A stretch of DNA of 64,000 bases from Candidatus Magasanikiibacteriota bacterium. GTDB lineage: Bacteria > Patescibacteriota > Patescibacteriia > Magasanikbacterales > GWA2-37-8. The stretch is taken from contig JAPLWQ010000002.1 in the NCBI GenBank assembly GCA_026396515.1, forward strand, positions 9,075 to 73,074, in the 5' to 3' direction. Below, one piece after another: positions 10,497 to 27,957 of the stretch (its first letter is position 1; each line of letters starts with the position of its first letter). The notes beneath the pieces are model-generated. The model was not told the DNA's origin and did not search any database. It was given only the letters and a program-made list of their open reading frames with translations. A program made the position numbers and the translations under genes.

Positions 10497-10505
10497 AAGA
10501 CATTG

Positions 10506-11120: not shown

Positions 11121-11145
11121 TCTTTTTAATAAACTCATACAAATA

Positions 11146-11248
11146 AGCCCAAGTAGAGTATACCTGAGCTTCAAGAGCTTCTTTAAATTAGTAACAAAAA
11201 ATTTACAAAAAAAGCCCAAAATTACATATTTGAGCTTCAAGAGCTTCT
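11146..11248 (-). promoter_or_regulatory. two tandem copies of the AAGCCCAAA-N-TTGAGCTTCAAGAGCTTCT upstream motif
   Basis: Copy 1 about 11146-11182, copy 2 about 11212-11248. Same motif recurs at 15495-15532, 26496-26532, 26580-26618 and 27560-27578, always 5' of minus-strand genes. Confidence 0.5.
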
Positions 11249-11346
11249 CTATTAAATAAAGTATAGCATACTTCACTACACTTGCATATCTGGAAATATT
11301 TCCCTGTGGATAACTCACTCATGGTAGTTATGATATTGAAAAACAC

Positions 11347-13011
11347 TTACTTTACCTCGATTTGATACATTTGAAGCTGCGCGTCATTAATGAGCATCTT
11401 TAGCCTTGGAGAAGCCAAAAATTCATAGTGTAAGTTATCCACGCTGTTCAAATCCTGAAAGTAAATAATATATTTAATGTCTTGTACCTCAAAATAGTCG
11501 ATCATTTCATTTGGAACCAAAGATTGTCCATTCTTTATAACCTGATCAAGCTGAAGATAAGCTGCGTTTAACTCTTGATCGTAGATTCCTTCAAGCTCAA
11601 CACTTTTACTGACCACGGCCTTTGTTCCAAAAAATCGTTTAGCCGGATTAGCAACCAACAGATTGGCATTGAAATTCAACGATAAATAGCCGTGCCAAGG
11701 CAAAAATAAAACATGGTAGTCTGAGTTATCAACCTGAATAATATTTTTTGCCTGATACCAAGCTTCCGGATACCAGACCGCCCGCACCTGATTCCTAAAT
11801 CCACCCCACAATAGATAGCCAAACAAAACAGGGACGAACAAAATCACTATGGGAAAATATGCGACGAACTTTTCCTTTTTTTTCTGCAACCACTCAATAC
11901 AGATGCCAAGCCCTATTCCCGACAGAACCGCATAGCTTAAGGCCAATAAGCCGACAAACTTTTGACTGTCGCGAAATCCTCGCCAAAAAGGAACATGCTC
12001 ATACAATGATATATTGAAATTTTTGAATACCGTATCCCCTGCTCCGGTGGAAAAAACAAAAGCCAAAATGCCTAAGGTGGAAAAGAATATTACCCTTGGC
12101 CTAAGATCCTTATTTTTAAAACCATAAATTACGCCGATTAAAATTAAAAACCAAATGATAATAAGAGCTAGCCAAAAAACTTGATAGTCCTGCGGCCAGG
12201 CGAATTGTCTTGACCAAGGCTGGTTCTCGGCCCAAAAACCATTTAAAGATAAAATATTGACCGTAGTAGATATTTTATCGTGGCCACTGGCGGCAAAAGC
12301 CAACCAATGTTGGCGGTCAAATCGTTGTTCAAAAGCTTGCCCGCGCACTATTACGGGGATCAGCCAATAGCTGCCGAGGATTAAAAATAGTGACACGCCG
12401 CACAATAAATTCTTAAAAGTTAATTTTAAAAGGACAAGGTTATTTATGGCTAAATATTTAATAGCATAAACCAAAAACCAGACCGCCATAATCACAGCAA
12501 GCATGGTAAAAAAATGAAGCGAAAACAGACTGATTAAAAGAATAGAGACAAATAATTTTATACTACTTTTAAAACTTGGTGATTTCGTAAACTTTAAGAG
12601 CCAATGAACAAATACCGGCAATAGAGCATAGGCCATCAAATGCGTCCAATGGCCGGCTAAAAAACGCGAGTAAACAAAAGGATTCACGGTATAAAGCAAA
12701 GCCGAAAATATGCGGACTGTTTTATTTTCCGACAAAGGTAAAAACTTATATGAGAAATAGCCTAGGCCAAAAAATAAAATAAAAAGGATAATTTTTTGAA
12801 TTATCCATGCGGGAATGAAGCCACTTACAAAGTGCAATATATAGTAGAACGGTAACGCATTATTATAATTGGTTCCAGAAAATAGTGCTTTTATCTCCGG
12901 AGTAAAGACCATGTCCAAAGTCAAAATATAGCCGGGCAGTAGCATCTGCCAAAGAATGAGTATAGCAACAACTGAAAATATAAATATATTTCTATCGGGT
13001 AAATGCTTCAT
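11347..13011 (-). CDS. polytopic membrane protein, GT-C/YfhO-like putative glycosyltransferase
   Basis: 554 aa. At least 10 predicted TM helices, then a soluble C-terminal domain. Architecture typical of GT-C glycosyltransferases. Confidence 0.4.
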   Translation of the reverse strand: MKHLPDRNIFIFSVVAILILWQMLLPGYILTLDMVFTPEIKALFSGTNYNNALPFYYILHFVSGFIPAWIIQKIILFILFFGLGYFSYKFLPLSENKTVRIFSALLYTVNPFVYSRFLAGHWTHLMAYALLPVFVHWLLKFTKSPSFKSSIKLFVSILLISLFSLHFFTMLAVIMAVWFLVYAIKYLAINNLVLLKLTFKNLLCGVSLFLILGSYWLIPVIVRGQAFEQRFDRQHWLAFAASGHDKISTTVNILSLNGFWAENQPWSRQFAWPQDYQVFWLALIIIWFLILIGVIYGFKNKDLRPRVIFFSTLGILAFVFSTGAGDTVFKNFNISLYEHVPFWRGFRDSQKFVGLLALSYAVLSGIGLGICIEWLQKKKEKFVAYFPIVILFVPVLFGYLLWGGFRNQVRAVWYPEAWYQAKNIIQVDNSDYHVLFLPWHGYLSLNFNANLLVANPAKRFFGTKAVVSKSVELEGIYDQELNAAYLQLDQVIKNGQSLVPNEMIDYFEVQDIKYIIYFQDLNSVDNLHYEFLASPRLKMLINDAQLQMYQIEVK

Positions 13012-13017
13012 ACTTGG

Positions 13018-14202
13018 CTATGATCGACCCAAAACAATTTCTATGTCAGTTGGTAAATTCGGATCCTCAAGCATTTCAAGATTATTATAACTGAGGGCTA
13101 AATAATCTTTAACTATATTTGCTTTGGCAAGATTATTCACCGAATATTTAATTATTGTTGTTTGATAATCCTTCTTATCGGCATCGCCGATTTGACTGAC
13201 AACAAATCCTTGACCCTGCATGTCAGCTTGCAGTTTACGAGCTAGACCGCTGGCGGCTGTACCATTTAGAATAGAAATACTAATTTCACTATTGGTAATC
13301 AAAATTTGATCCTCTCCCAGAGTGATAATAATTTCGTCCGTTAAACTCCGATCTTCCCGATTATCCAGCCCGCTTGAATTTGGCAGCGCGGCTAATAATT
13401 CCATAACTATATTTGCGCAAGTACTACAATACTGTAGCGAAGTAAATTGACTGGGCACACTATCAATTTGTCTAATATCAACATTGGGGGTGCCTATTTT
13501 CCTAAATTTTTCAGCCAATATTCCTGCCAAACTTACTTGATCTGTAGTATATTGGACTATCACTTTAGCGCTATCCCAATTGGTTTCTATGTTTTGATAA
13601 CTACTATCAGTTGACAACAATTGATCAGTGCCAATTTTTTCCTTGGCTAAGTTCGCACCCTCTAAGCGACTATCCACCAAATCACTAATCAATTTGTCAT
13701 TAACCCTGATTCTTTTTTCCATTTTTAGATAAAAAAATGAAAGACAACCCACAAACACAAACAAAACTAAAAAAACTGCTCCTATAGAAAAACGAATTAT
13801 TTTCTTCCTATCCCATAATTCCATTGGTTTGGTAATGGTTACTATTTCAGTCTTATCTTTTGAAAAAATTGAATCCTTGAAATGCTGAACGATCTGCAAG
13901 ACAACGCCCAAGGCCAGCATATAATAAGCATAAACAGCCATCTCTTCGGCTAAGGATTTCTTTTCATAAGCCAATAAAAAAGGACAGGTAATCAAAAAGA
14001 TTAATCCCAGGCCAACAAACACCCGGCTATCCCAGCCAAGTAGTAAAATGGCTATCGCTAAACCAATGATAAAAGATAAAAATATATTGCCTGAAAGTAG
14101 ATAGACGGTTATCAAAATCGTGATAGCAATACCAGTTTTTACTATGTGTTCCTTGAAATCGTTACAAATTATATTGATAATACGTAAAAAAAATCTAACC
14201 AT
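13018..14202 (-). CDS. membrane protein with C-terminal LytR_C domain
   Basis: 394 aa. N-terminal TM helices. C-terminal ISILNGTAASGLARKLQADMQGQGFVV ... DIEIVLGRS matches the LytR_C pattern. Confidence 0.5.
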   Translation of the reverse strand: MVRFFLRIINIICNDFKEHIVKTGIAITILITVYLLSGNIFLSFIIGLAIAILLLGWDSRVFVGLGLIFLITCPFLLAYEKKSLAEEMAVYAYYMLALGVVLQIVQHFKDSIFSKDKTEIVTITKPMELWDRKKIIRFSIGAVFLVLFVFVGCLSFFYLKMEKRIRVNDKLISDLVDSRLEGANLAKEKIGTDQLLSTDSSYQNIETNWDSAKVIVQYTTDQVSLAGILAEKFRKIGTPNVDIRQIDSVPSQFTSLQYCSTCANIVMELLAALPNSSGLDNREDRSLTDEIIITLGEDQILITNSEISISILNGTAASGLARKLQADMQGQGFVVSQIGDADKKDYQTTIIKYSVNNLAKANIVKDYLALSYNNLEMLEDPNLPTDIEIVLGRS

Positions 14203-14243
14203 AGAAACTTAAGCCAAAATATTTATATTTTCTTTATTACTTA

Positions 14244-15467: not shown

Positions 15468-15494
15468 AAATTTAAATTATAAATTTTAAAATAA

Positions 15495-15532
15495 AAGCCC
15501 AAACAAAATTTGCTTGAGCTTCTAGAGCTTCT
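15495..15532 (-). promoter_or_regulatory. upstream motif copy (AAGCCCAAACAAAATTTGCTTGAGCTTCTAGAGCTTCT)
   Basis: On the coding (minus) strand it reads AGAAGCTCTAGAAGCTCAAGCAAATTTTGTTTGGGCTTTTATTTTAAAATTTATAATTTAAATTTATG, i.e. motif, TTGTTT, 19 nt, TATAAT, 8 nt, ATG of 14244..15467. Confidence 0.5.
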
Positions 15533-18398
15533 TTAAGGGGGGTATTCTGTCCACCCTATTTACTTTCCTTATTGTATACCAATGATATGCGTTTGCCAAT
15601 AGATACAATAGGCAAGCCAGCAAGGTCAGACCTGAAATTACCAGACCAATATAAAAGAATTTCTGGGGCTCAAATTCAATATAAACCGAGAAGTCATAGG
15701 TACCGTCGACATTCTTGGCAATCTTTCCCTGTTTCTCCAATTCACCTACATCAATCCACCAAGAATTGGCAAAACCATTAATCAATAAGTGCTTTTCGTC
15801 CAAGACCGGTTTTCTAAACAATACGTCATAGAACTTGCCACCATTTAAATTTTCATTTTGAATGGTGCCTTGATTATTTTCACTAATAAATTTTCCTGTT
15901 CCCTGTGTAGCCAAGGCTGGCTGAATATATATTTTCCACCCCGGATGAAAACTCTCGGAAAATATCAAGGGAAAAGATTCGCTGGCGCCGTGGACATTAA
16001 CAATATATTTCGTGGGGTTGATTTGCTTGTATTCCAATTGGGGTGTTTTGATTGGCTCGGTCAAATTTTCAGCCGAAAGCACAATATCGCCGGAGTTGAT
16101 GGCGTCTACTACTGTAGTGCCTATATACAGATTGAATAGATGCTCGCCTTTTTCTAACTCTATCTGAGCAAAATATTTCCAGCCATCTTTATCTGTCCCT
16201 TTGGTGTTTTGCTGTAATATTCTATCAGCTACTTGGATATTAATATTTTTGTTATTAGCCAAAACACTGTCCGACTTCAAATATATTTTGTAATTTGCTT
16301 TGATTGGAATATTTAATTTATAATCCTTAAAAAATAAATTGTTGGCATACAAGTCCAAATCGCTTTGCATTTTTTTTTGTTCTTTAGCATCGGTCGTCAC
16401 ATCAACCGCCAATTTCATTTCGGCTATTTTGGCTGGATTGGCTTGTATGGCAATTAAAACACTGCTAATCTTTTCTGAAATCAATTTAGCATTATTTGAC
16501 TCATCTAATTTAAAATCAGAAAAAAGAATTCCATTCTTTAAGGGGTAATTATTGAATGAAAGAGCTTGATTAATAGATTCTACATCGTTTCCTATGTACG
16601 AAATAGTTTCTGACGAATATATATGTGGCAAGAAATAATTATCTTTAACCCTATAAAGATCTAATTCACCAAATTTATTTTCAAAAATTAAATCATCTCT
16701 TGCTAAAAGCATTTCTTTTATTTTTTCTGGAGGGATAATATCGTAGTATTTCCAATCTATATCATTTCTTTGAACAATATAATTTACATTAATTATCGAT
16801 AACATACCAGTGAATGCGTTCTTATCTGTAAAACTATCATAAACCAATTCTGTCAATCTTTTATACCCCCAAGATCCACCCCTAGTTTCTATACTAGGCC
16901 TATTTATTAAAGCGTTTGCAATACTTCCTTTTGGGCTACCCCATTTGAACACGCCAAAGTATGAATCAGGAAACATAAGAACTCTAAAATCTTGAGGCTG
17001 GGTATTCAGGTAATCTCCAATTTCATACCAATACGATGGCACTGTTTGAAACTTTTTATTATCAAATATCTTGCCCTTCCACAGAGGAAAGGAATTTAAT
17101 AGAATAAGACCAAAAGCCAAAGAAACAAAGATTACAGGTAGCGCTTTATGAAAAATTTTGCGCTCATTTTCAAACTTCTTTTTGAGATACGCATATATAG
17201 ATGAAATAAAACACCCAAACAACACCGAATAGACAAAAGCAATAATCGCTACGGATTTGTATCCATTTCTAAAAATACTAAATAATGGAACATGCTCATA
17301 ACACCATAAGTAAATTCTGCCGGTTATAGAAGTACTTGTAATAGGGTAGGCGCCTACCGCCATTGCCGAGAAAAATACCAACAGTAGTAATAAATATAGT
17401 CTTCCACTTTTTGAACGTATAAAAAATAGCCCGAAAATTGACAAAATAGCAAAAAGAAATGTACCAAATATTATAATAGGGCTTGTGCTGTAATAATTTG
17501 CAAATGATATATTCGGCACGCCTTTATATTGGCCGTAGAAACCCATATCTCCCAATAATCTAAAAGTTTCTAAATTGCTTGAGTGCCGATTATATATTTC
17601 TGTGGTCTCTACCCCCAGTGCCTCTTCAACATAGCCGTGATTTGATATACTGTTTTTTGCAAGTGGCATTATCCACCATGCAGATATTAGTAATGTTAAA
17701 GTTAATAATAGAATATTAATTTTTATAATACGTAAGTAATTAATATTTTTATTCATAATCAGGTAGACTAAAAGAAAAATAGAAATAGCAATTACATCGA
17801 TAACAATGAGTGTCAAATTAATATTTGAGAGAATAATTGTAGACAAGCTTAATAAAACTGCATAGTAAATATAAGTTTTCTCTTTTTTAAATCCATTTAT
17901 ATATAAACCAAGTAATAACGGAAAAACTACATAACCTATCACCATCGTTGACGCTACTATCAGCATCCTTATCAGGAAAAAACTATACATATATGTCACT
18001 GAAGAAATGATCCTAAGCAATCGTTTTTCTTTTCCAAAAAAAACTCCAATAAAATAATACATTGATGTTCCGGCAATAAATAATAGAAAACCGAGCCAGA
18101 TTTGCTTCACTACAAACGAGGAAATATTTATCTCAAACAAAGATACATTTAGAATATTATAAAAATTAGCTACGGCAAAAATTGGAGCGCCAAAGATAAA
18201 ATTTTTATCCCATAAAAAGGTCTTTCTTAAAAATGAATTCAAAGGGTTAATATCGTACCCTATGTCTGTCTCAGAGATAATCACATTGTGATATCTAAGA
18301 AATGGAATTATCGACAATATTAGAAAAAATATAACAACAAATATAATCGGATGATTGAGTAAGTACTTATACCACTTTATTATTATCGTAGTTATCAT
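15522..18398 (-). CDS. large polytopic membrane protein, GT-C-like, with large extracytoplasmic C-terminal domain
   Basis: 958 aa. About 13 TM helices in the first ~450 aa, then a ~450-aa soluble domain and a terminal TM. Resembles arabinosyl/mannosyl-transferase-type GT-C enzymes. Confidence 0.4.
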   Translation of the reverse strand: MITTIIIKWYKYLLNHPIIFVVIFFLILSIIPFLRYHNVIISETDIGYDINPLNSFLRKTFLWDKNFIFGAPIFAVANFYNILNVSLFEINISSFVVKQIWLGFLLFIAGTSMYYFIGVFFGKEKRLLRIISSVTYMYSFFLIRMLIVASTMVIGYVVFPLLLGLYINGFKKEKTYIYYAVLLSLSTIILSNINLTLIVIDVIAISIFLLVYLIMNKNINYLRIIKINILLLTLTLLISAWWIMPLAKNSISNHGYVEEALGVETTEIYNRHSSNLETFRLLGDMGFYGQYKGVPNISFANYYSTSPIIIFGTFLFAILSIFGLFFIRSKSGRLYLLLLLVFFSAMAVGAYPITSTSITGRIYLWCYEHVPLFSIFRNGYKSVAIIAFVYSVLFGCFISSIYAYLKKKFENERKIFHKALPVIFVSLAFGLILLNSFPLWKGKIFDNKKFQTVPSYWYEIGDYLNTQPQDFRVLMFPDSYFGVFKWGSPKGSIANALINRPSIETRGGSWGYKRLTELVYDSFTDKNAFTGMLSIINVNYIVQRNDIDWKYYDIIPPEKIKEMLLARDDLIFENKFGELDLYRVKDNYFLPHIYSSETISYIGNDVESINQALSFNNYPLKNGILFSDFKLDESNNAKLISEKISSVLIAIQANPAKIAEMKLAVDVTTDAKEQKKMQSDLDLYANNLFFKDYKLNIPIKANYKIYLKSDSVLANNKNINIQVADRILQQNTKGTDKDGWKYFAQIELEKGEHLFNLYIGTTVVDAINSGDIVLSAENLTEPIKTPQLEYKQINPTKYIVNVHGASESFPLIFSESFHPGWKIYIQPALATQGTGKFISENNQGTIQNENLNGGKFYDVLFRKPVLDEKHLLINGFANSWWIDVGELEKQGKIAKNVDGTYDFSVYIEFEPQKFFYIGLVISGLTLLACLLYLLANAYHWYTIRKVNRVDRIPPLKKL

Positions 18399-18420
18399 TT
18401 TCTTCGATTACATTATATAT

Positions 18421-19122
18421 TTATTTTCTCAATATAAAAATATTATTTGCCGACAAGCTTTTAGATACTAGACAAATAAATCTATCAAAAACATTATCCC
18501 AGACAGGAACCGATTTTATTCGAATTATTTTTAATCCTTTTAGTTTTAACAAATCTTTTAATGCTCCGTACGTAAATATTCGGATATGTCCCTCTGTTTT
18601 ATTTAGCTGACCGAAGACTTTAATCATTCTCCCCAATTTAACTTCCGAGGAGTTTTCAAGAAAGAACGGTGATATTCCAAAAAGCAACATGATTCTATTT
18701 AGGTAATATCCCAGATTTGGGGTTGATATAATTATAATACTCTTCTCATGCATAAGTTCTTTTATCTCATCTAATAAACTATCAGGACTAAACAAATGCT
18801 CAAGTACTTCTCCGCAAATAATTACATCAAATTTTTCCTCCGTATATTTATCTGCTAATTTTTCTTCGTTTAGATTTATCTTTTGATAATCATCAATTTC
18901 AATATTGATTTTGTCATAGAAATCACACCCATAATATTTATCTTCATTTCGCTTATGTCTAAATATTTCACAATTATGCCCGCAACCGATGTCTAATATT
19001 TTTATTGGAAGAGAGAAATGTTCATTTTTATACTCCAAATATTGATTAATAATGTGTTTTAATCTAATATTCATCCCCGAGGCCGTCTGTCGTTTAGATA
19101 AAAATTCTTTTGTATTTTTCAT
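18421..19122 (-). CDS. class I SAM-dependent methyltransferase
   Basis: 233 aa. Motif I ILDIGCGHN, acidic motif DVIICGEVLEHL. Confidence 0.7.
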   Translation of the reverse strand: MKNTKEFLSKRQTASGMNIRLKHIINQYLEYKNEHFSLPIKILDIGCGHNCEIFRHKRNEDKYYGCDFYDKINIEIDDYQKINLNEEKLADKYTEEKFDVIICGEVLEHLFSPDSLLDEIKELMHEKSIIIISTPNLGYYLNRIMLLFGISPFFLENSSEVKLGRMIKVFGQLNKTEGHIRIFTYGALKDLLKLKGLKIIRIKSVPVWDNVFDRFICLVSKSLSANNIFILRK

Positions 19123-19133
19123 AATATTTGCAT

Positions 19134-20393
19134 TTATGAAATAGTTTTGATTATTTCTTGGAAAACTCTTTCGGAACTTTTTCCATCTTGATATCTATTA
19201 AAATCCCTATTAACTAACAATCGCCTCTGCTTATAGTTATCCACTCCATTTAAAATGTCCTGCACGTATTCTACTACTTCGTCCCAATCATTTGCCTTCG
19301 GTCCGGGAGTTACCGAATTGTAGTCGTAATAAAACCCACGCAACTTTTCGTATAGTACTAAATCAAACGGAGTAAATACTACTGGCCTATTTAATAGTAG
19401 AAAGTCAAAGTAAACACTTGAATAATCAGTTAATAAAATATCTGTTTTGGGCAATATTTCATAGATATCTTCAATCTGACTTAAGGATATGTTTTTTGCA
19501 TTTGCGAATAAATCAGCAATTTTTTTTGATTGCTTTTCATCGCAAGCGTGCAATTTGATGATAAAATTAGCATTGTTCCTTTCTAAAAAGGAATCGAACT
19601 TCTCCAAATTGAATTTGTACTGACCAAAAAAGTCGAAGTTTTTGTCATATTCCCTCCATGTCGGTAGATAGAATAGTAATTTTTTCTTGTTTTTACTTTC
19701 TATTTTTTCAAATAAAACATCATTCCTTGGCTGACCTGTAGTTTTAATATTTTTATGTCCAAAAATGGGTAGCTCTGCATAGATTTTTTTATTCTTATCG
19801 GTGGCACTAATTATCAAATCTGATTCTCTGCCTATATATTGCAGAATGATCCAGCTTATGATTCTTTTGTTAAAACTGGAAACCTTTAGTAATTCTTCGG
19901 AGGTTTTTCCATACCACGCTTGAATAATTTTATTTTTTAATTGAAATAAATAAGTAGCAATACTTGCATCTAAAGTTAGCCGTTTTAGGGGCGTTCCATG
20001 CCACAACTGAATAATTTTACTTTTTGAAGAAAATAAATAGGAGGTAGAGTTAACATCAAAAAATGATGTTGTGAGAACTAAAACTTTTGCCACAATACTA
20101 TAATATATTCCGTTTACTGAATAGAATTTGTAAACCTCAAAATTTTCTTTTCGTAATTTTTGAACTATATAGTCACTTTTTGTTAACCATATCGGACGGA
20201 TAATTTTTTCATTAACATTTACATATTCAAATAATGCTCTTGAATTATCGTTATATTTTGTCCCGTTGCCGGTACCAAAAATCCATATTTTGTTATTTTT
20301 TTTAACCAGTAAACCAACCAGATACAATGGCAAAAAAATAATTTTCAATAATAGTGCGGATAATTTGATAAAATAATTATTGCAATTTTTCAT
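19134..20393 (-). CDS. CDP-glycerol glycerophosphotransferase (TagB/TagF family)
   Basis: 419 aa. Conserved blocks HGTPLKRL, YLPTWREYD, ILLTDYSSVYFDF. Confidence 0.7.
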   Translation of the reverse strand: MKNCNNYFIKLSALLLKIIFLPLYLVGLLVKKNNKIWIFGTGNGTKYNDNSRALFEYVNVNEKIIRPIWLTKSDYIVQKLRKENFEVYKFYSVNGIYYSIVAKVLVLTTSFFDVNSTSYLFSSKSKIIQLWHGTPLKRLTLDASIATYLFQLKNKIIQAWYGKTSEELLKVSSFNKRIISWIILQYIGRESDLIISATDKNKKIYAELPIFGHKNIKTTGQPRNDVLFEKIESKNKKKLLFYLPTWREYDKNFDFFGQYKFNLEKFDSFLERNNANFIIKLHACDEKQSKKIADLFANAKNISLSQIEDIYEILPKTDILLTDYSSVYFDFLLLNRPVVFTPFDLVLYEKLRGFYYDYNSVTPGPKANDWDEVVEYVQDILNGVDNYKQRRLLVNRDFNRYQDGKSSERVFQEIIKTIS

Positions 20394-21099
20394 TTATTTT
20401 CAATTTATACAATATTTGATTTGCAAATAATGACGGGAGAAGATTTTCTAAAAATATGAATGGTTTATAGCCCAAACCACACGAAACAATTTTTAATTCA
20501 ACTTCAAAACCATGGTAATTCGACCAATAAATAAAATCTTTCAATGTCCAAAATCTGATATGCTCTTTTACATTCTGCTGGATCATAACAAGCGGAAATC
20601 TACCGAACAATAATCTTAGCCTATGAAGAAGAAACCCCGCATTCGGAATCGACACAAAAACTGATTTATCAAAATGATTCTTTATAGCTAGAATAACTTT
20701 TTCAGGATCCTGAATATGTTCCAAGACCTCTGTCAGTATTATGTAATCAAATTTCTTCTCGGCTAAAAAATTTGTAAAATCCTCAGCTAAAACATTCATC
20801 TCAAAAGCGTCAAATCCTTTTTTTTTAACATATTCAACCGCTTTTTTTGAAATATCTATGCCGACAATTTCTTTTGGTTTATTGTTTTTACTTAAATATT
20901 CAATGATTGTTCCGTCGCCGCAACCAATGTCCAGTATTTTGCTGTCTGGCTCGATATATGTAGAAATTATTTTGGCTCTGCCCAATGAAGGCGCATGAAA
21001 ACCTCTATTTTCCCAATACTCATCATAATCTTTAAAATTATTATCAAGAGGCATCGGCTTGAATATTCCTTGCAATAATATCGAAATTTTTTTTATCAT
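20377..21099 (-). CDS. class I SAM-dependent methyltransferase
   Basis: 240 aa. ILDIGCGDGT and DYIILTEVLEHI motifs. Overlaps neighbours by 17 nt and 4 nt, consistent with an operon. Confidence 0.65.
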   Translation of the reverse strand: MIKKISILLQGIFKPMPLDNNFKDYDEYWENRGFHAPSLGRAKIISTYIEPDSKILDIGCGDGTIIEYLSKNNKPKEIVGIDISKKAVEYVKKKGFDAFEMNVLAEDFTNFLAEKKFDYIILTEVLEHIQDPEKVILAIKNHFDKSVFVSIPNAGFLLHRLRLLFGRFPLVMIQQNVKEHIRFWTLKDFIYWSNYHGFEVELKIVSCGLGYKPFIFLENLLPSLFANQILYKLKINEKLQ

Positions 21100-21503
21100 A
21101 TTAGTTTTTTAACTTTGTCGATAATATTTTCTTTTAAACAGGTCGTTGATATATCGGGTGTTCTTTCGAGATATACAACCTCACAACACTTTTTCAACTC
21201 ATCAAATTTTCCCTCCCAATCGTTACCCATAACAAAGATGTCAATCTTTTTATTTTTTATATCCGCTACTTTCTGCTCCCAATTTTCTTCTGGGATGACT
21301 TCATCTACATACCTAATGGTCTCTAAAACGGCCTTTCTTTGCACATAAGGCAAGAAACAATCTTTATTTTTCATCCTGTTGAATTCGTCGGTTGATAAAC
21401 CCACAATCAAATAGTCACCAAGGTCTCTCGCTCTTTTGAGTAAGTTTATATGACCAACGTGCAATAGGTCATATGTACCATACGTAATCACAATTTTTTT
21501 CAT
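21096..21503 (-). CDS. tagD: glycerol-3-phosphate cytidylyltransferase
   Basis: 135 aa. Nucleotidyltransferase motif ITYGTYDLLHVGHINLLKRA and the short length typical of TagD/TarD. Confidence 0.8.
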   Translation of the reverse strand: MKKIVITYGTYDLLHVGHINLLKRARDLGDYLIVGLSTDEFNRMKNKDCFLPYVQRKAVLETIRYVDEVIPEENWEQKVADIKNKKIDIFVMGNDWEGKFDELKKCCEVVYLERTPDISTTCLKENIIDKVKKLI

Positions 21504-22198
21504 ATTTTTTTAAATACTAATTCCCAGCTATAATAACCAGGTATTGGTATTCTTATCTTTCTTAATATTCTAAATAATAGATTATTATATAGTTTTCTAT
21601 TTCTAATACCCAATCTTTTTACAAAAAAATCGATAATAGGAAATCTTTCGAGAGTTTTTTTATTTTCTAATAATTTAAATTTATTACGGTCAAATAAATC
21701 CAATAATTCGCAATCTTTTTTATATTCTCTTAAATGTGTTGGGTCTAAAACCCATTTCCCATTATTTCTATAAAAATACCATCCGTACCACTTTTTAAAT
21801 ACGGTCGAAATATAGATTATCCCATCTTTTTTTACAACTCTATGGATATTGTTCATCATCTTATTGTCGTCTATGTGTTCTATTACCATGGTAGATACAA
21901 AAAAATCAATGCTATTGTTTTCAATAGTTTTCATCTCTTCTGCATTATCAACCATTGCAGTTATGCCGACGTCAATTTTGCGTACAAGATCGATTCTGTT
22001 TTTCGACAAATCTATAGCAAAAACTTTCTTATCAATCAAATATTTATTTTTAATTAAAGCACTTAACAAATTGCCATCGCCACAACCGCAATCTAAAAAA
22101 GTAGTGAAATTATGATTTAGTAAATACTTTTTTAATAATTCTGAGATGCAATCAGAATAATATTGTGGGGCAATCTTTGAATATTCTTCTATATTCAT
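21500..22198 (-). CDS. class I SAM-dependent methyltransferase
   Basis: 232 aa. FLDCGCGDGN and DFFVSTMVIEHI motifs. Confidence 0.65.
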   Translation of the reverse strand: MNIEEYSKIAPQYYSDCISELLKKYLLNHNFTTFLDCGCGDGNLLSALIKNKYLIDKKVFAIDLSKNRIDLVRKIDVGITAMVDNAEEMKTIENNSIDFFVSTMVIEHIDDNKMMNNIHRVVKKDGIIYISTVFKKWYGWYFYRNNGKWVLDPTHLREYKKDCELLDLFDRNKFKLLENKKTLERFPIIDFFVKRLGIRNRKLYNNLLFRILRKIRIPIPGYYSWELVFKKI

Positions 22199-23040
22199 AT
22201 TTTCTTAATTTTATTTACTAAATACCCGGCTCCGCCAAAGGCAAATTTGAAAAAATTGTACATAATAAATCCGCTGCCTAACATGGGATGATAGATAAAC
22301 TTTTTCCAGTTTTTAAAATACACACTCCTGAAAAATCCCAATTGCTTTTTTGATTCGCTTATATTTTCTTGTTTGTACTTTACAAAATCCTTTCCATAGT
22401 CGTAATATTTTTTCATGTGCTTCCAAAAATTAGTCGGCTCCCCCAAATGCAAGGCTTCCGCCTCAATAAATCCAGTTTTAAAACCGCCTCTATTTAGTTT
22501 ATTTTGAAAATCATAATCCTCTCCGGCCGTTATTTTTTCATTAAATTCGCCGATTTTTTCGTAAACTTCTTTTCGTACGAATCTTGCGGAAGAATGGGTA
22601 ATGTCGTACTTATACATATCCACCTCAAATTTTCTTATATGCGCAATCCAGGAAATTCTCACATCAGGAGAATTGTGAACCACCACTGCGCCAAATCCTT
22701 CGTTCGCTTTTTTTACGCATTGATCAATGACTTCCTTGTCTAAAATAAAATCTGAATCTACTTTATAAACATATTCACCGTTAGAATTTTTAACTCCAAA
22801 ATTTACTTGCGCGGATCTTTCCGGTCCCCAATTGAGTAGTTGAAAGTTATAAAGTTTATAAAGTTCTAAAGTTGACTGTTTAAAAGCCTCGGCGATTTCT
22901 TTTGTACTGTCTACACTATTATTATCCACTACAATAATTTCTATATTTTTGTATGTCTGATTTTTTAAAGATTCCAAACATTTTTCAAGAAATTCACTTG
23001 AATTTTTTGTCGGAATTATCACTGAAACTAAACAACTCAT
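22195..23040 (-). CDS. family 2 glycosyltransferase
   Basis: 281 aa. VSVIIPTKNSSEFLEKCLESLKNQTY ... IEIIVVDNNSVDST and a DxD block. Confidence 0.75.
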   Translation of the reverse strand: MSCLVSVIIPTKNSSEFLEKCLESLKNQTYKNIEIIVVDNNSVDSTKEIAEAFKQSTLELYKLYNFQLLNWGPERSAQVNFGVKNSNGEYVYKVDSDFILDKEVIDQCVKKANEGFGAVVVHNSPDVRISWIAHIRKFEVDMYKYDITHSSARFVRKEVYEKIGEFNEKITAGEDYDFQNKLNRGGFKTGFIEAEALHLGEPTNFWKHMKKYYDYGKDFVKYKQENISESKKQLGFFRSVYFKNWKKFIYHPMLGSGFIMYNFFKFAFGGAGYLVNKIKKI

Positions 23041-23052
23041 ACTTTATAAACT

Positions 23053-24195
23053 TTATAACTTTATGAACTTTATAAACTCTTCGTAACTATTTTTAAAATT
23101 AATCTCCTTACTCCATTCCCAGGCATTAATTCTTAGACTCTTATATTTTTCTTCATCACTTAACAAATTAACTATATTAACCGCTAAATCTTCTGGGGTA
23201 TTTTCCTTGCAGATTAGTCCTGTTTCGTTATTCATGACTGCATCGCGCAGACCATCAACGTTATAAACAATGGCCGGCGTACCCTGACTATTTGCTTCTG
23301 TGACAACTAATCCCCAACCCTCTTTAACCGAAGTAACTGCGATTAGATGTGATTTTTGCAATAATTCAATTTTCTTTTCTTTACTTACTTTACCAAGGTA
23401 TTCCATGGAATCTGCAAAGGCACTGACCTTCATCATCTTCAATACCTTAGCTCCATAGGTACCCTCGCTAGAGCCGGCGATAATCAGTCGCAAGTCAGGC
23501 ATCACTGCTTTTGCAATTTCAAAGGCCTTAATGATATGATCCGTTCTTTTCATGGCCTTAATTGCCCCGAGGCTTAATATTGTCGGGTCTTTATACTTTA
23601 TAACTTCATAACTTTCTAACTCTTTAACTGGCTCAATCTCAATGCCTTCGCTGATTATTTTTATGTTTTCATCTTTAAAGCCATATTTCAATAAATCTTT
23701 TTTGGTGCTGGCGGAAACGGTAATAACTTTTCTGTCAGAGAGTAACCATAGATAGACCGGCTCCAACAGATATCCAAGTAAACTAAGCGGGAAGAACATC
23801 TGATAAAACCATATTTCTCGACAGAGTTGGTGGATAAAGAGAATATTTTTTACCTCACCCCGACCCTCTCCTTGCAAAGGAGAGGGGGAACAAACATAAA
23901 ACTTCGCAAAGAATGGGATTGTATTTACTTCGTCAATTACCAAATCCGGCCAACCGACTAAATTTTTTTTGTAGTATTTATAGGCCCGCCAATAAACTGT
24001 CCATTTATTGCCCAGTCGTATGACTTTGTACCCATCGATTATTTCTTCGTTTAAAGCCCCCTGAAAGCCCGCCACGAGTAGTATCAGCTCATTACCGTCT
24101 TCTACCAGCCTTTTTGCCAAAGATTCGTTGACTAACTCCGCACCGCCGGCTAACGGATTTTTCCTGTCTTTCCATGTTAGCCATAGGATTTTCAT
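23053..24195 (-). CDS. family 4 (GT-B) glycosyltransferase carrying an in-frame palindromic-element insertion
   Basis: 380 aa. C-terminal GT4 signature (KEGWGLVVTEANSQGTPAIVYNVDGLRDAV). N-domain contains an atypical 14-aa segment CSPSPLQGEGRGEV encoded by a CCTCACCCCGACCCTCTCCTTGCAAAGGAGAGGGGG element at about 23853-23888. Confidence 0.7.
   Translation of the reverse strand: MKILWLTWKDRKNPLAGGAELVNESLAKRLVEDGNELILLVAGFQGALNEEIIDGYKVIRLGNKWTVYWRAYKYYKKNLVGWPDLVIDEVNTIPFFAKFYVCSPSPLQGEGRGEVKNILFIHQLCREIWFYQMFFPLSLLGYLLEPVYLWLLSDRKVITVSASTKKDLLKYGFKDENIKIISEGIEIEPVKELESYEVIKYKDPTILSLGAIKAMKRTDHIIKAFEIAKAVMPDLRLIIAGSSEGTYGAKVLKMMKVSAFADSMEYLGKVSKEKKIELLQKSHLIAVTSVKEGWGLVVTEANSQGTPAIVYNVDGLRDAVMNNETGLICKENTPEDLAVNIVNLLSDEEKYKSLRINAWEWSKEINFKNSYEEFIKFIKL
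23853..23888. repeat. palindromic element copy (CCCTCTCCTT-GCA-AAGGAGAGGG) inside the GT4 CDS
   Basis: Perfect 10-bp inverted repeat flanked by CCTCACCCCGA. Same element family as the copies at 31581-31883, 42496-42585, 36678-36711 and 37268-37301. Confidence 0.65.
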
Positions 24196-25151
24196 ATCAT
24201 TTGGTTAAAATTACTCTTCCTGATAACATAAGTCGGACGTTTTAAGACTTCATCTTGGATGTTGGCGATATAGAGGGCGACCAATCCTAAGCAAGAAAGA
24301 ATAATCCCCACTAAAAAAACTAATAAAATAGCTAACTGGGCTGGGCCGGAAAAGCTCATGGCAAAGCTATTATGAACAATGTATCTACCAACAAATAATA
24401 GAAACCCGGCTAAGCCAAACAAGACAATGATAGCTACGCCTAAATATCCGGCCAGCTTCAGCGGGAAAAGGCTATGGTTAACAATGGTGCATAACGCCAA
24501 TTTAACAAGCTTCATTTTGTCATAACAAGCCAAGCCGTTTTTTCGGCCATTCGAATCAAAATTAATATATTCCCGTTTAAAGCCCAACCAATCAATAAGA
24601 CCCCTGGTCATCCGGCCATGTTCCGTAAAGCGACGAAAAGCCAAAACTACTTTTCTATCAAGCAGTCTATAATCAGTGGCATTAGGAGTAATTTTCGTAT
24701 CGCCAATGGTATCCATAATTTTATAAAATAGCAGCGAACCGATTTTTTTTACTATACCCCCTCCTATATTTCTATTGCGCACGCCAATTACTACTTCGGC
24801 TCCGTTTTGCCATTTCTCCATAAAATTAGGCACCAATTCAACCGGATGTTGTAAATCGGCATCAATCATAATAACCGCATCTCCCCCCGCCGCATCAAGT
24901 CCCGCGGAAAGAGCAAGCTCCTTACCAAAATTGCGCGAAAATTGAATAAATTTGACATGACTATTTTGATTAGCAAAATTCTCTAAAACTACTGCGCTAT
25001 TATCCTGGCTCCCATCATCAACGAAAATAATTTCGTAATCGTAATTATCTAATAAACCATTTAACGTCTTTAGCAGTCCAGCATAAATCAAGGGGATATT
25101 TTCCTCTTCATTAAAAACCGGAATAACTATAGAAATTAATTTTTTGGACAT
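24192..25151 (-). CDS. polyprenyl-phosphate glycosyltransferase (GtrB/ArnC-like GT2 with C-terminal TM helices)
   Basis: LISIVIPVFNEEENIP ... YEIIFVDDGSQDNS ... IMIDADLQHP, plus two C-terminal TM helices. Start placed at MSKKLISIV; the track's N-terminal extension to 25235 overlaps the upstream gene by ~100 nt. Confidence 0.7.
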   Translation of the reverse strand: MSKKLISIVIPVFNEEENIPLIYAGLLKTLNGLLDNYDYEIIFVDDGSQDNSAVVLENFANQNSHVKFIQFSRNFGKELALSAGLDAAGGDAVIMIDADLQHPVELVPNFMEKWQNGAEVVIGVRNRNIGGGIVKKIGSLLFYKIMDTIGDTKITPNATDYRLLDRKVVLAFRRFTEHGRMTRGLIDWLGFKREYINFDSNGRKNGLACYDKMKLVKLALCTIVNHSLFPLKLAGYLGVAIIVLFGLAGFLLFVGRYIVHNSFAMSFSGPAQLAILLVFLVGIILSCLGLVALYIANIQDEVLKRPTYVIRKSNFNQMI

Positions 25152-26476
25152 AAATAATATATCCTGATAAAGTAAAAAATCAGCAGGAACAGCGCAAGTA
25201 GCATCGACCCGTTCATTATCCAAATAATTTGCCATAAACTAGTATGGAAAATGTATATAAAAACTATTTGCAATAGAGACCCAATACCAACTAAATATGC
25301 GCCCATGGCTTTTCCCACGGAAAGAAAATAGTTTGCCAGCAAGGCTACTAAGGAATACAAAAACATTGATAAACCAAACCAGCCCAGATATTTGCTAATC
25401 GCCAGGAATTTGCCACCGATTAGAATATTAATTATCAGATCAGGGATTATGAAATAAAAAATGACAATGCCCAGACCTATCAGGGCGGTTAAGCAAATGG
25501 CTTTTTTAAGGATTTTCGCCGGGTGTTTTAAACTGCTGTGCGCATCAGCCGCCATTGGAAACATTACTCCCGCGACCGGCCCGGCCATAAAATATATTAC
25601 ATTGCCGAGCATGGCTAAAGCGCCAAATTCTCCGGCTGTTTGAGCTGAAAAAAAATGCTTAACTAAAATTATATCTACATTGCAAAGCAGGGCAATAAAC
25701 AAAAGGCTAAAAAAAACCGGGAATGAATAGCGCCCAATCTCTTTTACTTGCACTTCCTCCTTTTGCCGTTTAAATAGAAATTTCAAGGGATAAAAATATA
25801 AAAGATAACTAACCAAGGCAGCCAAAGTGATTGCCCCAACCGCCCCATTTATGGCAAAGCCCAGCTTAACAAGCAAAACGGAAAATGCAACTTTAAGCAA
25901 AGCCGAAATTAGAGAAATAACAGATAATTCCTTAAATTTCTGCAGGCCGCGAATAATACCTAAATTTATTGAACTCGGAAAGCTAAATAGAAAAACAATT
26001 CCTAAAATCAATAATGGCCAAACGGAATCCAAATTTATAAACCGGGCAATTTGCCCGCTAAAAATCGCAAATAATGCAAAGAATGCGACGGCGGCGACTG
26101 AAGTTTTCTTGGTTAATATTAAAAATAGGGAATAGATTTTATTCGGCTGATTCTTTGCTTTAAAATCGGCGGTATATTTTACTAAAACCGTTGCTAAAGT
26201 TGCGGTTGGAATAGCGGTGACGGTAAAAATTGCCAACAAAGTTTGCAGTTCGCCATATACCGCTACCGTTAACATTCTGGCCATTAAAAATTGATAAAGA
26301 TAATTGACCGCCCCAACCGCCAGAGAACCACATAATAAAATCACAATATTAGACAGAAATCTATCTTGCCTGATCCTATCCAGGGATGTTCTTACGATGC
26401 GGCTGATCATGGAACTACTTAATCTAAAAGTAAAACCCAAACGTGATATGTTTGCGCGTCTAATACTTCTGTACAT
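25136..26476 (-). CDS. polysaccharide-biosynthesis flippase (Wzx/MOP superfamily)
   Basis: 446 aa, about 12-14 TM helices, MOP-flippase architecture. Two upstream-motif copies lie 5' of it. Confidence 0.6.
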   Translation of the reverse strand: MYRSIRRANISRLGFTFRLSSSMISRIVRTSLDRIRQDRFLSNIVILLCGSLAVGAVNYLYQFLMARMLTVAVYGELQTLLAIFTVTAIPTATLATVLVKYTADFKAKNQPNKIYSLFLILTKKTSVAAVAFFALFAIFSGQIARFINLDSVWPLLILGIVFLFSFPSSINLGIIRGLQKFKELSVISLISALLKVAFSVLLVKLGFAINGAVGAITLAALVSYLLYFYPLKFLFKRQKEEVQVKEIGRYSFPVFFSLLFIALLCNVDIILVKHFFSAQTAGEFGALAMLGNVIYFMAGPVAGVMFPMAADAHSSLKHPAKILKKAICLTALIGLGIVIFYFIIPDLIINILIGGKFLAISKYLGWFGLSMFLYSLVALLANYFLSVGKAMGAYLVGIGSLLQIVFIYIFHTSLWQIIWIMNGSMLLALFLLIFYFIRIYYLCPKN

Positions 26477-26495
26477 TATTTAGGTAATTATAAAA

Positions 26496-26618
26496 AACTC
26501 AAACAAATTCTGCTTGAGCTTCTAGAGCTTCTGAAAATTTTTATCCCGTATATTTAATTGGTTGCAATACTACATAAAAAACCCGAACCAATTAAGGTTG
26601 CGGGCTTCAAGAGCCTCT
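26496..26618 (-). promoter_or_regulatory. upstream motif copy (26496-26532) and degenerate copy (26580-26618) 5' of the Wzx gene
   Basis: AACTCAAACAAATTCTGCTTGAGCTTCTAGAGCTTCT, and AACCCGAACCA...TTGCGGGCTTCAAGAGCCTCT. A TATAAT lies about 10 nt before the ATG at 26476 on the minus strand. Confidence 0.5.
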
Positions 26619-26682
26619 GAGTATTTCTATCTTTTATTATAGCACAATTGTCTGTTGTGGGTTATAGGAAATATCCACAGAT

Positions 26683-27519
26683 TTACGGATTTTTCGGCAA
26701 CCAACCCAAAACATGGTAGCCGACGAATTTTCCTGAGTCATCAAAATTGGGAGTAAAGTATTGTTCGCTTTCTACAGGTTTGCCTTGTGCATTATTCCCT
26801 CCTACGCGCACTACACGGTATGGCAATTCTCGAGTACAAAAATTGTCAAAAGTTTTTTTGGCTTCCACTCTCGCTTCCTCCGGCAAAAAATCAAAGTAGT
26901 TTTTACCAATAACCATTTCCGGCTTAAATCCAAAGAGTGTTTCCACTGACGGACTCACATATTCACCTACCCCGTTTTTGTCTATTCTGAAATAATAGTC
27001 GCAGGCGTTATCCAAAAACTTTTCTCCATTTTCGCCTAAATTATTTTCATCAATTTTGGCATCTCTTATCGATGTCGATATCAATATATATTCTCCTTTT
27101 TCGGTTGGTCTATATGCTTTAAAAAAGACGGAGACTGGTATATTCCGGCCATCCTTGGATTTATGAATGGTGTCCAACTGAAAAAATCTCCCCTCCTTCA
27201 GCAACGACTCCGGCCCAAAGAACTTTTTGCTTATCTCTTCCGGCATAACAGGGCAGATTTGTATGATGTTTTTACCAATCAATTCTCCATACGCATAGCC
27301 CAAAATTTTACAAGCTGAATCGCTGACATTGGTTATTATACCTCTGTCGTCGATAATCATTAGATAATGAGTGGCATCATCTGCCAATTTGATACTGCCG
27401 ATGGAATTAAATATCCCGCACTTTTTGCATTTAATTTCTAAAAGTCCATCAAAAAAAATACCCTTTAATAGAAGTTTTCCACACTTACACCGATGCTCGT
27501 ATAAAAATGATGTATTCAT
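26683..27519 (-). CDS. zinc-ribbon + tandem PAS-domain protein (no output domain)
   Basis: N-terminal CxC...CxxC ribbon (HRCKCGKLLLKG ... IKCKKCGIF), then two PAS-like modules. Start placed at MNTSFLYEHR (27517-27519); the track's extension to 27594 translates the (TA)n tract and the upstream motif. Confidence 0.5.
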   Translation of the reverse strand: MNTSFLYEHRCKCGKLLLKGIFFDGLLEIKCKKCGIFNSIGSIKLADDATHYLMIIDDRGIITNVSDSACKILGYAYGELIGKNIIQICPVMPEEISKKFFGPESLLKEGRFFQLDTIHKSKDGRNIPVSVFFKAYRPTEKGEYILISTSIRDAKIDENNLGENGEKFLDNACDYYFRIDKNGVGEYVSPSVETLFGFKPEMVIGKNYFDFLPEEARVEAKKTFDNFCTRELPYRVVRVGGNNAQGKPVESEQYFTPNFDDSGKFVGYHVLGWLPKNP

Positions 27520-27543
27520 ATATATATATATATATATATATAT
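27518..27543. repeat. (AT)13 dinucleotide microsatellite abutting the start codon of 26683..27519
   Basis: A 26-nt perfect alternating AT run, immediately followed on the coding strand by GAATAC. Confidence 0.85.
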
Positions 27544-27559
27544 TGAGAACAGCATATAT

Positions 27560-27578
27560 TTGAGCTTCTGGAGCTTCT
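27560..27578 (-). promoter_or_regulatory. upstream motif copy (TTGAGCTTCTGGAGCTTCT)
   Basis: Same GAGCTTC-N2-GAGCTTC core as the other copies. About 40 nt 5' of the ATG of the Zn-ribbon/PAS gene. Confidence 0.45.
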
Positions 27579-27785
27579 TGGCTAATAACAGCATACCATA
27601 AACCTCAATTTCCTGGTAGCGCTGAAAGAGCCTGCTATTCCTTTAATATAACACTAACAAATCGCACAAATTTTGTCTAATTTGAAGGTAAGGCCGCCAA
27701 CCGGTGAATTATGGAAGGCAATCATCGCCGTCGATCACCGCCACATGGCTTATTGCCCCCCTCCCCGCAAAAAATTTCTTTTTTT

Positions 27786-27817: not shown

Positions 27818-27825
27818 AGTACAAG

Positions 27826-27888: not shown

Positions 27889-27957
27889 AGAAATATTTAA
27901 ATATATAACAATGCAATTATAGCACAACCTATCTGTTTCGACAATAAACTATATTTT

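Follow-up and report, generated by a model that had tools for sequence, protein, structure and literature searches.

Motif copies at a glycan and surface-protein locus

The stretch of DNA analysed here (the window) comprises 64,000 nucleotides (nt), positions 9,075 to 73,074 of contig JAPLWQ010000002.1, from a Candidatus Magasanikiibacteriota bacterium (assembly GCA_026396515.1) of the Patescibacteria, or candidate phyla radiation (CPR). It carries six copies of a short repeated element, all of them in gaps between minus-strand genes for glycan synthesis, surface proteins and a Zn-ribbon/PAS protein. The motif, the two covarying RNA helices in which it takes part, its tight linkage to genes for Com-like zinc ribbons, and the homology to Com of phage Mu and to the RNA site of Com are demonstrated in the following sections, and a regulatory switch is then proposed.

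An operon at 15522..26476 on the minus strand, delimited from the open reading frame (ORF) map, Pfam and the precomputed domains of a matching Logan contig (L001), runs from a Wzx flippase gene through genes for glycosyltransferases, methyltransferases and CDP-glycerol-type enzymes to a GT-C (AftD-like) gene, and is bracketed by motif copies. The candidate trans-acting regulator, a protein of 278 aa with an N-terminal Com-like CxC...CxxC zinc ribbon and two PAS domains, is encoded at 26683..27519 (minus strand), between the copy at 27562 and those at 26602 and 26516. The glycan/surface-protein cluster and all six copies fall in a low-GC island at about 8000-28000 (30-39% against about 45% elsewhere), which may be a variable or horizontally exchanged locus.

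Searching for GAGCTTC-NN-GAGCTTC with up to two mismatches gave six matches, all on the plus strand, at 11166, 11232, 15516, 26516, 26602 (itself with two mismatches) and 27562; shuffling predicts 0.19, and none of 100 shuffles gave six. At three mismatches the window yields further matches at chance level only. A covariance model built from 35 copies and run at full sensitivity over the 64 kb recovered five full copies (52-64 bits) and a truncated one at 27540-27583 (12.7 bits), and no copies beyond these six. The sequence-only reading, an earlier inspection of the same letters, had placed six copies 5' of four minus-strand genes, and this is borne out: two precede the dockerin gene, one a gene for a 407-aa protein, two wzx and one the Zn-ribbon/PAS gene. 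It had also included AAGCCCAAA in the motif. Taken alone this word is not enriched (38 matches against 30.8 expected) and is ruled out as an independent motif; beside the repeat it is real, because there it forms the 3' arm of a hairpin. The copies have, on the gene strand, the sequence A-GAAGCUC-YN-GAAGCUC-A..(loop)..UUGGGCUUUUUU, and we refer to the two repeated words as heptad 1 and heptad 2.

Five copies belong to complete units, all on the minus strand, in which the heptads are followed by a terminator-like hairpin. Two such units stand in tandem before the dockerin gene. The first, at 11211..11247 (heptad 1, 11247-11241; heptad 2, 11238-11232), scores 57.8 bits with the covariance model and has its hairpin at 11238-11211 (-12.1 kcal/mol), then U7. 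The second, at 11145..11181 (heptad 1, 11181-11175; heptad 2, 11172-11166; 54.4 bits), has its hairpin at 11171-11145 (-13.6 kcal/mol) with an interrupted U-run, and lies just 5' of the dockerin/DUF5018 gene (Pfam), which starts at 11138 or 11120. These are the two copies picked up by a generic terminator scan. The unit at 15492..15531 (heptad 1, 15531-15525; heptad 2, 15522-15516; 63.7 bits) has its hairpin at 15524-15492 (-16.7 kcal/mol), then a U-run, and the next start codon is at 15467. Upstream of wzx, the unit at 26493..26531 is of the standard form (heptad 1, 26531-26525; heptad 2, 26522-26516; 61 bits), with a hairpin at 26523-26493 (-13.4 kcal/mol, z-score -2.4), then a U-run; the plus strand does not fold here, and the wzx start (26476) is 17 nt downstream. 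The other wzx unit, at 26578..26617 (heptad 1, 26617-26611; heptad 2, 26608-26602; 52.1 bits), begins 65 nt past the stop codon of the regulator gene and has its hairpin at 26608-26578 (-17.3 kcal/mol), then U6. It reads GAGGCUC-UU-GAAGCCC, and what had earlier passed for a degenerate copy is a conserved, compensated variant that occupies the same position in relatives.

The sixth copy, an exact match at 27562..27577 on the minus strand (heptad 1, 27577-27571; spacer CA; heptad 2, 27568-27562), belongs to the leader of the regulator gene. A terminator arm is missing from it, RNA folding yields a helix between the AGCU cores of its heptads only, and its model score is low because the 3' arm is absent. 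Between it and the regulator AUG, running into the start codon, we read a (TA)n run of about 12 units (27518..27543, minus strand), which is self-complementary and folds as a hairpin. The length of this microsatellite differs among orthologous loci (L096, L098, L099, L100, L101), and the run could provide a slippage-prone or structure-forming control of regulator expression. Upstream of the leader, at 27826-27887 (minus strand), a 20-codon ORF encodes the very basic peptide MAKGNNSQKREKKKPKKNKK. To this ORF belong the site that looks most like a promoter in the region (TTGTCG-17-TATAAT with TG, 27944-27916) and a conventional terminator of its own (27817-27796), behind which the stretch 27600-27790 lies.

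The N-termini of ORFs 10506..11318 and 26683..27594 had been suspected to be artefacts of translation through the motif, rightly so: ORF 10506-11318 is translated through both of its motif copies, and homologues of the PAS protein all begin at the Met equivalent to 27519. For annotation this matters, as gene callers routinely translate through the motif and produce false N-terminal extensions. Such extensions (EALEAQ, KKLLKL) occur in public protein sets, for instance in P0010, which reads ...EALEAQ..., and in P0075.

Two mutually exclusive RNA helices

When the sense transcript is folded, five of the six window copies form a 9-15-bp hairpin whose 5' arm is supplied by the second heptad and behind which a U-run stands. 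These hairpins reach -12.1 to -17.3 kcal/mol, against -5 to -7 kcal/mol for the plus-strand RNA in four of the five copies; copy 26602 still folds at -11.6 on the plus strand, against -17.3. The asymmetry arises because several of the pairs are G.U. A stable stem-loop followed by a U-rich tract is thus present in these five copies and in most copies of relatives, copy 27562 excepted, and we consider the five to be intrinsic-terminator-like elements, at which RNA polymerase would be released.

The repeat can also fold upon itself. The AGCU cores of the two heptads pair as a 4-bp stem (3:15, 4:14, 5:13 and 6:12, counted from the first nucleotide of heptad 1) that closes a C-N-N-G-A pentaloop (C7-N-N-G10-A11), with GA on the 5' flank and C on the 3' flank. 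The direct repeat of GAGCTTC with 2-nt spacing that had been described earlier is therefore present as letters and is in fact an AGCU:AGCU stem, since variant heptads are complementary rather than identical. The same behaviour rules out single-stranded tandem protein-binding words of the TRAP or HutP kind.

Covariation supports this mini-helix. In an alignment made with a model that does not contain the helix, 300 of 301 cells are paired (99.7%) and all four pairs display two-sided changes, measures that none of 500 shuffles reached, while slid controls were 6-79% paired; in the seed alignment, all 140 cells are paired. Compensated heptads include GAGGUCC-UU-GAGACCC (L118), GAGACUC-GC-GAAGUCC (L127), GAGGCAC-UA-GAUGCCC (L125) and GAGGUUC-CA-GAAACCC (L164). 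In the GAGGCUC/GAAGCCC variant, the third position of heptad 1 and the sixth of heptad 2 are changed, and these two are partners in the mini-helix; in the window, the unit at 26578..26617 has accordingly G3:C15 in place of A3:U15, and its mini-hairpin reaches -4.3 kcal/mol.

The terminator helix covaries as well, with 96.1% of the cells paired (95.6% in the seed alignment) and 8 of 11 pairs compensated, again beyond all of 500 shuffles. Its 5' arm is invariant and its 3' arm varies only as far as pairing still holds. Positions G1, A2, C7, G10, A11 and C16 of the repeat do not vary. Where heptad 2 changes, the changes are matched in both of its pairing partners, so nucleotides 12-15 take part in two mutually exclusive helices. 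The mini-hairpin (-2.3 kcal/mol, or -4.3 for the variant) cannot compete unaided, given its energy gap to the terminator (-12 to -17 kcal/mol).

Neither helix corresponds to a known RNA family, which Rfam scans ruled out: at the gathering score, Rfam 15 returned only tRNAs in the window and 18 related loci, and a scan of 11000-27700 relaxed to E <= 1 gave no match on the motif. A sequence conserved upstream of the motif in many metagenome-assembled genomes, considered as the 3' end of a tRNA or tmRNA, turned out to be the C-terminal coding region of a small Zn-ribbon gene.

Several relatives carry motif arrays (L099 3605-3669, L096 2411-2465, L102 10506-10616, and L123 downstream of the regulator), with three or four heptads at a 9-10-nt period or with three tandem heptad pairs before one terminator, and some copies have a 3-nt spacer that gives a hexaloop, as in Mu. 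The arrays and the 3-nt-spacer copies suggest cooperative or multi-site binding. In the window, the UAG stop codon of the 958-aa GT-C (AftD-like) gene (15524-15522, minus strand) coincides with the spacer and the first G of heptad 2; as it lies inside the mini-hairpin pentaloop, the switch would be covered by a ribosome that terminates there.

Com-like zinc ribbons beside the motif

In order to see where the motif occurs, we scanned one genome per species (185,579 species) with the motif pattern and obtained 93 stretches, against a rough chance estimate of about 6. About half of them show the whole architecture; these come mostly from Patescibacteria/CPR metagenome-assembled genomes (MAGs), with a few from Lysinibacillus, one from Clostridium and one from an archaeon. 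The remaining stretches are high-GC coding sequence for KKLKKL- or EKLEKL-type peptides and were taken as chance. In most full-architecture copies, the ORF that ends 4-30 nt upstream encodes a Com-like ribbon of 47-75 aa with the signature EYRCxxCxKLLFKG...EVKCKxCH, and the gene downstream is often a ribonucleotide reductase (RNR) of about 710 aa. A signature of this type is also the N-terminus of the 278-aa protein of the window.

The reverse test started from the protein. We fetched 80 metagenome loci (571 kb) solely by the peptides CxCGKLL[LF]K and EIKC[KR][KR]CG, patterns that derive from an alignment of 32 homologues. The 14-base core, with up to two mismatches, was found in 49 of the 80 loci, with about 50 exact matches where about 0.004 were expected. 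With the covariance model, 50 loci yielded 81 full-length matches, of which 77 have the same orientation as the ribbon gene. Up to 250 nt from a ribbon gene the motif occurs 1.53 times per kb, and its density falls to 0.076, 0.075, 0.024 and 0.017 per kb at 0.25-1, 1-2, 2-4 and 4-8.5 kb, a sharp drop which indicates that the element is not a generic CPR terminator. The named lineages in which the motif is conserved include Magasanikbacteria, Paceibacterota, Uhrbacteria, Saccharibacteria and Doudnabacteria, among others, and Firmicutes prophage-like contigs have it too.

These Firmicutes contigs come from Clostridium and Lysinibacillus (L176 3722-3760, which equals L047; L178 7840-7888; L021, L024, L040, L072 and L081). 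Here a small Com-like gene ends 1-4 nt before a GAAGCUC-NN-GAAGCUC unit with hairpin and U-run, and one downstream gene matches phrog_1389 (function unknown). As the same unit follows a Com-like gene in both groups, the RNA site is conserved between the CPR and Firmicutes elements. A mainly phage-borne element was considered and rejected, since IMG/VR yielded only four matches and tblastn of a 45-aa ribbon against GenBank phages yielded none. Loci from 'uncultured Gammaproteobacteria' MAGs (third-party annotation, TPA, co-assemblies; L003, L006, L010, L013, L015 and others) are nearly identical to the Patescibacteria-labelled L064 and L067; ribbon-switch-RNR loci thus occur across differing taxon labels, which look unreliable.

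The homology of the ribbon to Com was established at several levels. The whole protein of the window matches Pfam PAS_9 (6.7e-21) and PAS (1.9e-17), and its residues 1-53 alone reach 25.0 bits (E 1.2e-5) on the Com family PF10122, for which the gathering score is 22.9, through the signature RC-x2-C-x-KLLFK ... EI-x-C-x2-C. It is the only Com-like ribbon of the window. A profile of 19 ribbons aligned to Mu Com (a sequence 100% identical to AF083977.1) with hhalign at a probability of 96.8% and an E value of 2.5e-10, and in PHROGs the ribbon matches phrog_13819 ('gpCom') and phrog_6417, and 'translational regulator' is among the annotations matched. For the stand-alone CPR ribbons, Com is the best match, at 16-19.6 bits, below the PF10122 threshold. 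The window protein is identical to one of a Candidatus Magasanikbacteria MAG and has full-length homologues in about 90 clusters, each organism-named one of which is from a Patescibacteria-group (CPR) lineage. A PDB sequence search for a Com structure returned unrelated zinc fingers only, and in literature on Com-like ribbons, CPR, PAS and antitermination we found no description of the ribbon-motif pairing or of a Com-PAS fusion.

In phage Mu, translation of mom is activated by Com, a zinc finger that binds RNA (PMC6483171). Its RNA site, obtained by systematic evolution of ligands by exponential enrichment (SELEX) and by selective 2'-hydroxyl acylation analysed by primer extension (SHAPE), is 5'-CC(N)2-3GAG-3', in which the first C is base-paired, the loop begins with the second C, and Com protects the GA of the loop (PMC6483171). 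Read from the Mu genome, the site is G-A-[AUGC]-C-UGC-G-A-[GCAU]-C, directly followed by the inhibitory hairpin TIS (CCCAC...GUGGG), and the element described here is G-A-[AGCU]-C-NN-G-A-[AGCU]-C. Both thus have GA, a 4-bp stem, a loop that begins with C and finishes with GA, and then C. Our consensus Y6-C7-N-N-G10-A11-R12, with Y6:R12 as the closing pair and C7, G10 and A11 invariant, corresponds to the SELEX site, and variants with a C6:G12 closing pair read exactly CC-NN-GAG. The proteins share the ribbon RCxxCxKLLFK...EIxCxxC. In both systems the RNA site is on the same mRNA, just downstream of or beside the regulator gene, and competes with or abuts an inhibitory hairpin, the opening of which is the known action of Com (PMC6483171). 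The systems differ in that the Mu hairpin hides a GUG start codon, whereas no start codon lies inside the hairpins here, which end in a U-run and share nucleotides with the mini-hairpin. Moreover, the loop has 5 nt instead of 6, the ribbon either is joined to two PAS sensor domains or forms a protein by itself with an additional Cys-rich tail, and the CPR targets form a multi-site cellular regulon (glycan/surface, NrdD, PFL, DHODH) instead of one phage gene. Genomic linkage and the resemblance of its site to that of Com suggest that the Zn-ribbon/2xPAS protein is probably the binder of the mini-hairpin RNA. A 20-nt RNA, AGAAGCUCUAGAAGCUCAAG, is the candidate binding target for its zinc ribbon (residues 1-50).

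The position of the units in relatives bears on their targets. Upstream of the regulator start, some relatives have a full unit, and the closest ones (L096, L098-L101) have heptads and a (TA)n run, as at 27562. Just past the regulator stop, GAGGCUC-NN-GAAGCCC with hairpin and U-run recurs in L095, L100, L103, L104, L106, L109, L116 and L119, and further downstream standard units precede the following genes. Start codons lie from -3 to about 290 nt past the U-run, often at -3 to +25 and in some cases at 100-290; genes whose start codon comes right after the U-run need read-through for their expression, because there is no room for a promoter. Among 61 scanned genes directly behind units, nine encode the regulator itself and six the anaerobic ribonucleotide reductase NrdD (four with an ATP-cone); others encode a pyruvate formate-lyase (PFL)-like glycyl-radical enzyme, dihydroorotate dehydrogenase (DHODH, two), ice-binding-like and other signal-peptide proteins, LytR_C proteins and a response regulator. 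Relatives thus appear to control NrdD, PFL and DHODH genes by the same switch.

The nrdD-linked ribbons stand alone and have an extra C-x4-CP-x-R tail. Stand-alone Com-like ribbons (68-75 aa, C-terminal NELLCLIKxCPNR) are followed 4-20 nt later by a unit and, 5-25 nt on, by a gene for ATP-cone ribonucleotide reductase or NrdD, with PFL-like and DHODH genes as further targets. Such loci, all on genome contigs, are L003, L006, L010, L015, L025, L028, L034, L039, L052, L057, L064, L067, L069, L071, L087, L089 and others. The oxygen-sensitive theme of these targets hints at redox or O2 sensing.

A proposed antitermination switch

The best explanation for these observations, and one that we hold to be fairly probable, is that a Com-like sensor controls antitermination, possibly together with translational unmasking, of surface and glycan genes. 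Each copy would be a cis-regulatory RNA switch on the sense (minus-strand) transcript with two incompatible folds. Without protein, the stronger hairpin would win and transcription would stop, and the region before the next start codon would perhaps be occluded. When the Com-like Zn-ribbon holds the mini-hairpin, the 5' arm of the terminator would be sequestered and RNA polymerase would read through. In the window, the binder would be the Zn-ribbon/2xPAS protein (26683-27519), whose PAS domains would make binding signal-dependent. The regulator could thereby gate the wzx-to-GT-C glycan operon via two tandem units, read-through into the 407-aa, LytR_C and membrane-protein genes via one unit, and read-through into the dockerin gene via two. 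It probably acts on its own leader too; at 27562, with a mini-hairpin and no terminator, autoregulation would take another route. The cognate protein that the sequence-only reading recommended looking for is thus almost certainly encoded by the Zn-ribbon/PAS gene, which that reading had listed as a target.

Several points weigh against this explanation. We infer, and do not observe, the binding of the protein to RNA, termination by the hairpin and the direction of regulation. The mini-helix is short (4 bp), most sequences are the consensus and independent events are few: compensated cells amount to three at pair 4:14 and two at 6:12, and the events are fewer than the cells because many rows are orthologous sites. 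The alignments are biased to the consensus, with which they were seeded and retrieved. Thirty of the 80 Zn-ribbon loci have no match, many of these being short contigs and some holding divergent forms (3-nt spacers). Some U-runs are interrupted, as in copy 11166, and antitermination cannot be the role of copy 27562, which has no terminator. Promoters might still be present in the AT-rich DNA that follows each unit, and the distribution in the source organism was seen over the 64 kb of the window only.

Translational control as in Mu, in which the large hairpin would mask ribosome loading until protein on the mini-hairpin opens it, is compatible with antitermination, and we consider it rather unlikely to be the better description. 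Mu Com does act translationally (PMC6483171), many of the downstream start codons are 0-25 nt past the hairpin and U-run, and the leader copy 27562 has no terminator, yet is followed by a (UA)n run that can pair with itself and extends to the AUG. However, the hairpins contain neither a start codon nor an evident Shine-Dalgarno sequence, some units are 100-290 nt from the next start codon, and a conserved U-run straight after the stem is the hallmark of intrinsic terminators.

The sequence-only reading had instead seen a promoter-proximal, UP-like DNA element, with tandem half-sites for a DNA-binding protein. A shared regulator site that coordinates surface and glycan genes is supported by our results; its nature as a DNA operator, in which the heptads would be double-stranded half-sites for a transcription factor and the hairpin merely the terminator of the upstream gene, is improbable. 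It is true that the copies precede genes, that Zn-ribbons can bind DNA and that -10-like AT-rich sequences follow some copies, such as the TATAAT 8 nt before the ATG at 15467. Nevertheless, the TTGTTT proposed as a -35 element falls within the 3' arm of a hairpin, and a scan of the window for sigma-70 promoter-like sites showed no enrichment (95 matches against 76 +/- 8 expected from shuffles). The units end in a U-run right behind the preceding genes, and at many loci the start codon is within a few nucleotides of the U-run, which leaves no promoter space. In the units the second heptad is always the 5' arm of the terminator, and folding is strand-specific through the G.U pairs. Variant heptads stay complementary, the opposite of what is expected for two half-sites of one protein, and the homologue of the linked protein binds RNA (PMC6483171), so the half-site model is not upheld.

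Ordinary terminators, or a dispersed repeat (of the kind of repetitive extragenic palindromes or miniature inverted-repeat transposable elements) spread by duplication without a dedicated regulator, would account for copies that are alike and clustered in the low-GC island at 8-28 kb, and hairpins with U-runs are common elements. We regard this as very improbable, as the same motif is shared by the named CPR lineages and by Firmicutes prophage-like contigs, is 20-90 times denser beside Com-like genes than farther off, and has a covarying mini-helix and a terminator stem with an invariant 5' arm and a 3' arm that varies only within pairing limits. No more credible is a protein that promotes termination, RNA processing or stabilisation, for example by binding heptad 1 and the folded terminator: the direction of control is not observable from sequence and two tandem units before some genes suggest strong insulation, but the covarying helix between heptads 1 and 2 is incompatible with the terminator, Com is known to open its adjacent hairpin (PMC6483171), and read-through must occur because essential genes (nrdD) sit behind a unit without promoter room.

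Known antitermination and attenuation systems share parts of the proposed Com-like switch. In BglG/SacY/LicT with their ribonucleic antiterminator (RAT), a signal-controlled protein stabilises a small hairpin, which overlaps in its 3' part with the 5' arm of an intrinsic terminator; there, however, the RNA is bound by an unrelated co-antiterminator (CAT) domain and not by a Zn-ribbon, RAT forms a hairpin that is imperfect and measures about 29 nt, and regulation passes through phosphorylation of PRD domains by the phosphotransferase system (PTS). In ANTAR proteins (EutV, NasR, AmiR and the PAS-ANTAR-LOV 'PAL'), a sensor, sometimes PAS, is fused to an RNA-binding output, and a small hairpin overlapping a terminator leads to antitermination (PMC3369931). 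ANTAR is a helical coiled-coil that acts on two tandem hexaloop hairpins, whereas a Zn-ribbon would act here on one pentaloop hairpin. With its single 4-bp pentaloop hairpin, the RNA is of neither the RAT/CAT nor the ANTAR type, and Pfam found no CAT, PRD or ANTAR domain, only Zn-ribbon_Com and PAS. TRAP, HutP and PyrR bind short repeated RNA words beside a terminator, as the motif at first appears to offer; their repeats are single-stranded and the proteins mostly favour termination, whereas the 'repeat' here is a base-paired stem. JUMPstart/ops with RfaH, and LoaP/UpxY, also use a short conserved element upstream of surface-polysaccharide genes to overcome termination, but there the element is non-template DNA or part of a leader, NusG paralogues are recruited to it for processive antitermination, and no such paralogue is linked here. 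The ops octamer GGCGGTAG occurs three times in the window, always inside ORFs and never beside the motif, and 6 of 100 shuffles do as well; being neither motif-associated nor enriched, ops/JUMPstart (RfaH) is ruled out.

Protein-stabilised antiterminator hairpins are known, and so is Com with its RNA. What appears new is their combination, the output, the sensor fusion, the regulon and the lineage, and the pairing itself appears undescribed. CPR/Patescibacteria are uncultivated and have tiny genomes with few recognisable regulators, and almost nothing is known of their gene regulation; in the present case, sequence alone gives access to a regulator, its RNA site and a target set, the last made up of surface glycans and adhesin-like proteins, which are thought to mediate the episymbiotic lifestyle. 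In a broader form, the proposal would be that CPR and some Firmicutes prophages use an unrecognised class of signal-responsive riboregulators, in which Com-type ribbons, alone or fused to PAS, clamp GA-stem4-CNNGA-stem4-C and thereby disable an overlapping terminator; we find the arguments for and against this generalisation to be evenly balanced. If it is true, Mu Com would be the lone studied member of a broad and ancient family of regulators and RNA sites, turning from a phage one-off into the founding member of a wide family whose usual output may be antitermination and not translational activation. It would also be the first predicted regulon-scale cis-regulatory RNA system in CPR, with targets in reduced genomes that span surface glycan and protein genes and oxygen-sensitive enzymes of nucleotide and energy metabolism (NrdD, PFL, DHODH). 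The pair would be very small, tolerant of covariation and possibly reprogrammable. Since the site has 16 nt, compensated stem changes are tolerated and the domain has about 40 residues, binding and termination assays would be easy and use as an RNA-protein tool would be possible.

Finally, the window also holds a tRNA-Ser(GCT) gene at 29770-29861 and a 2783-aa ORF at 43461-51812, both on the minus strand.

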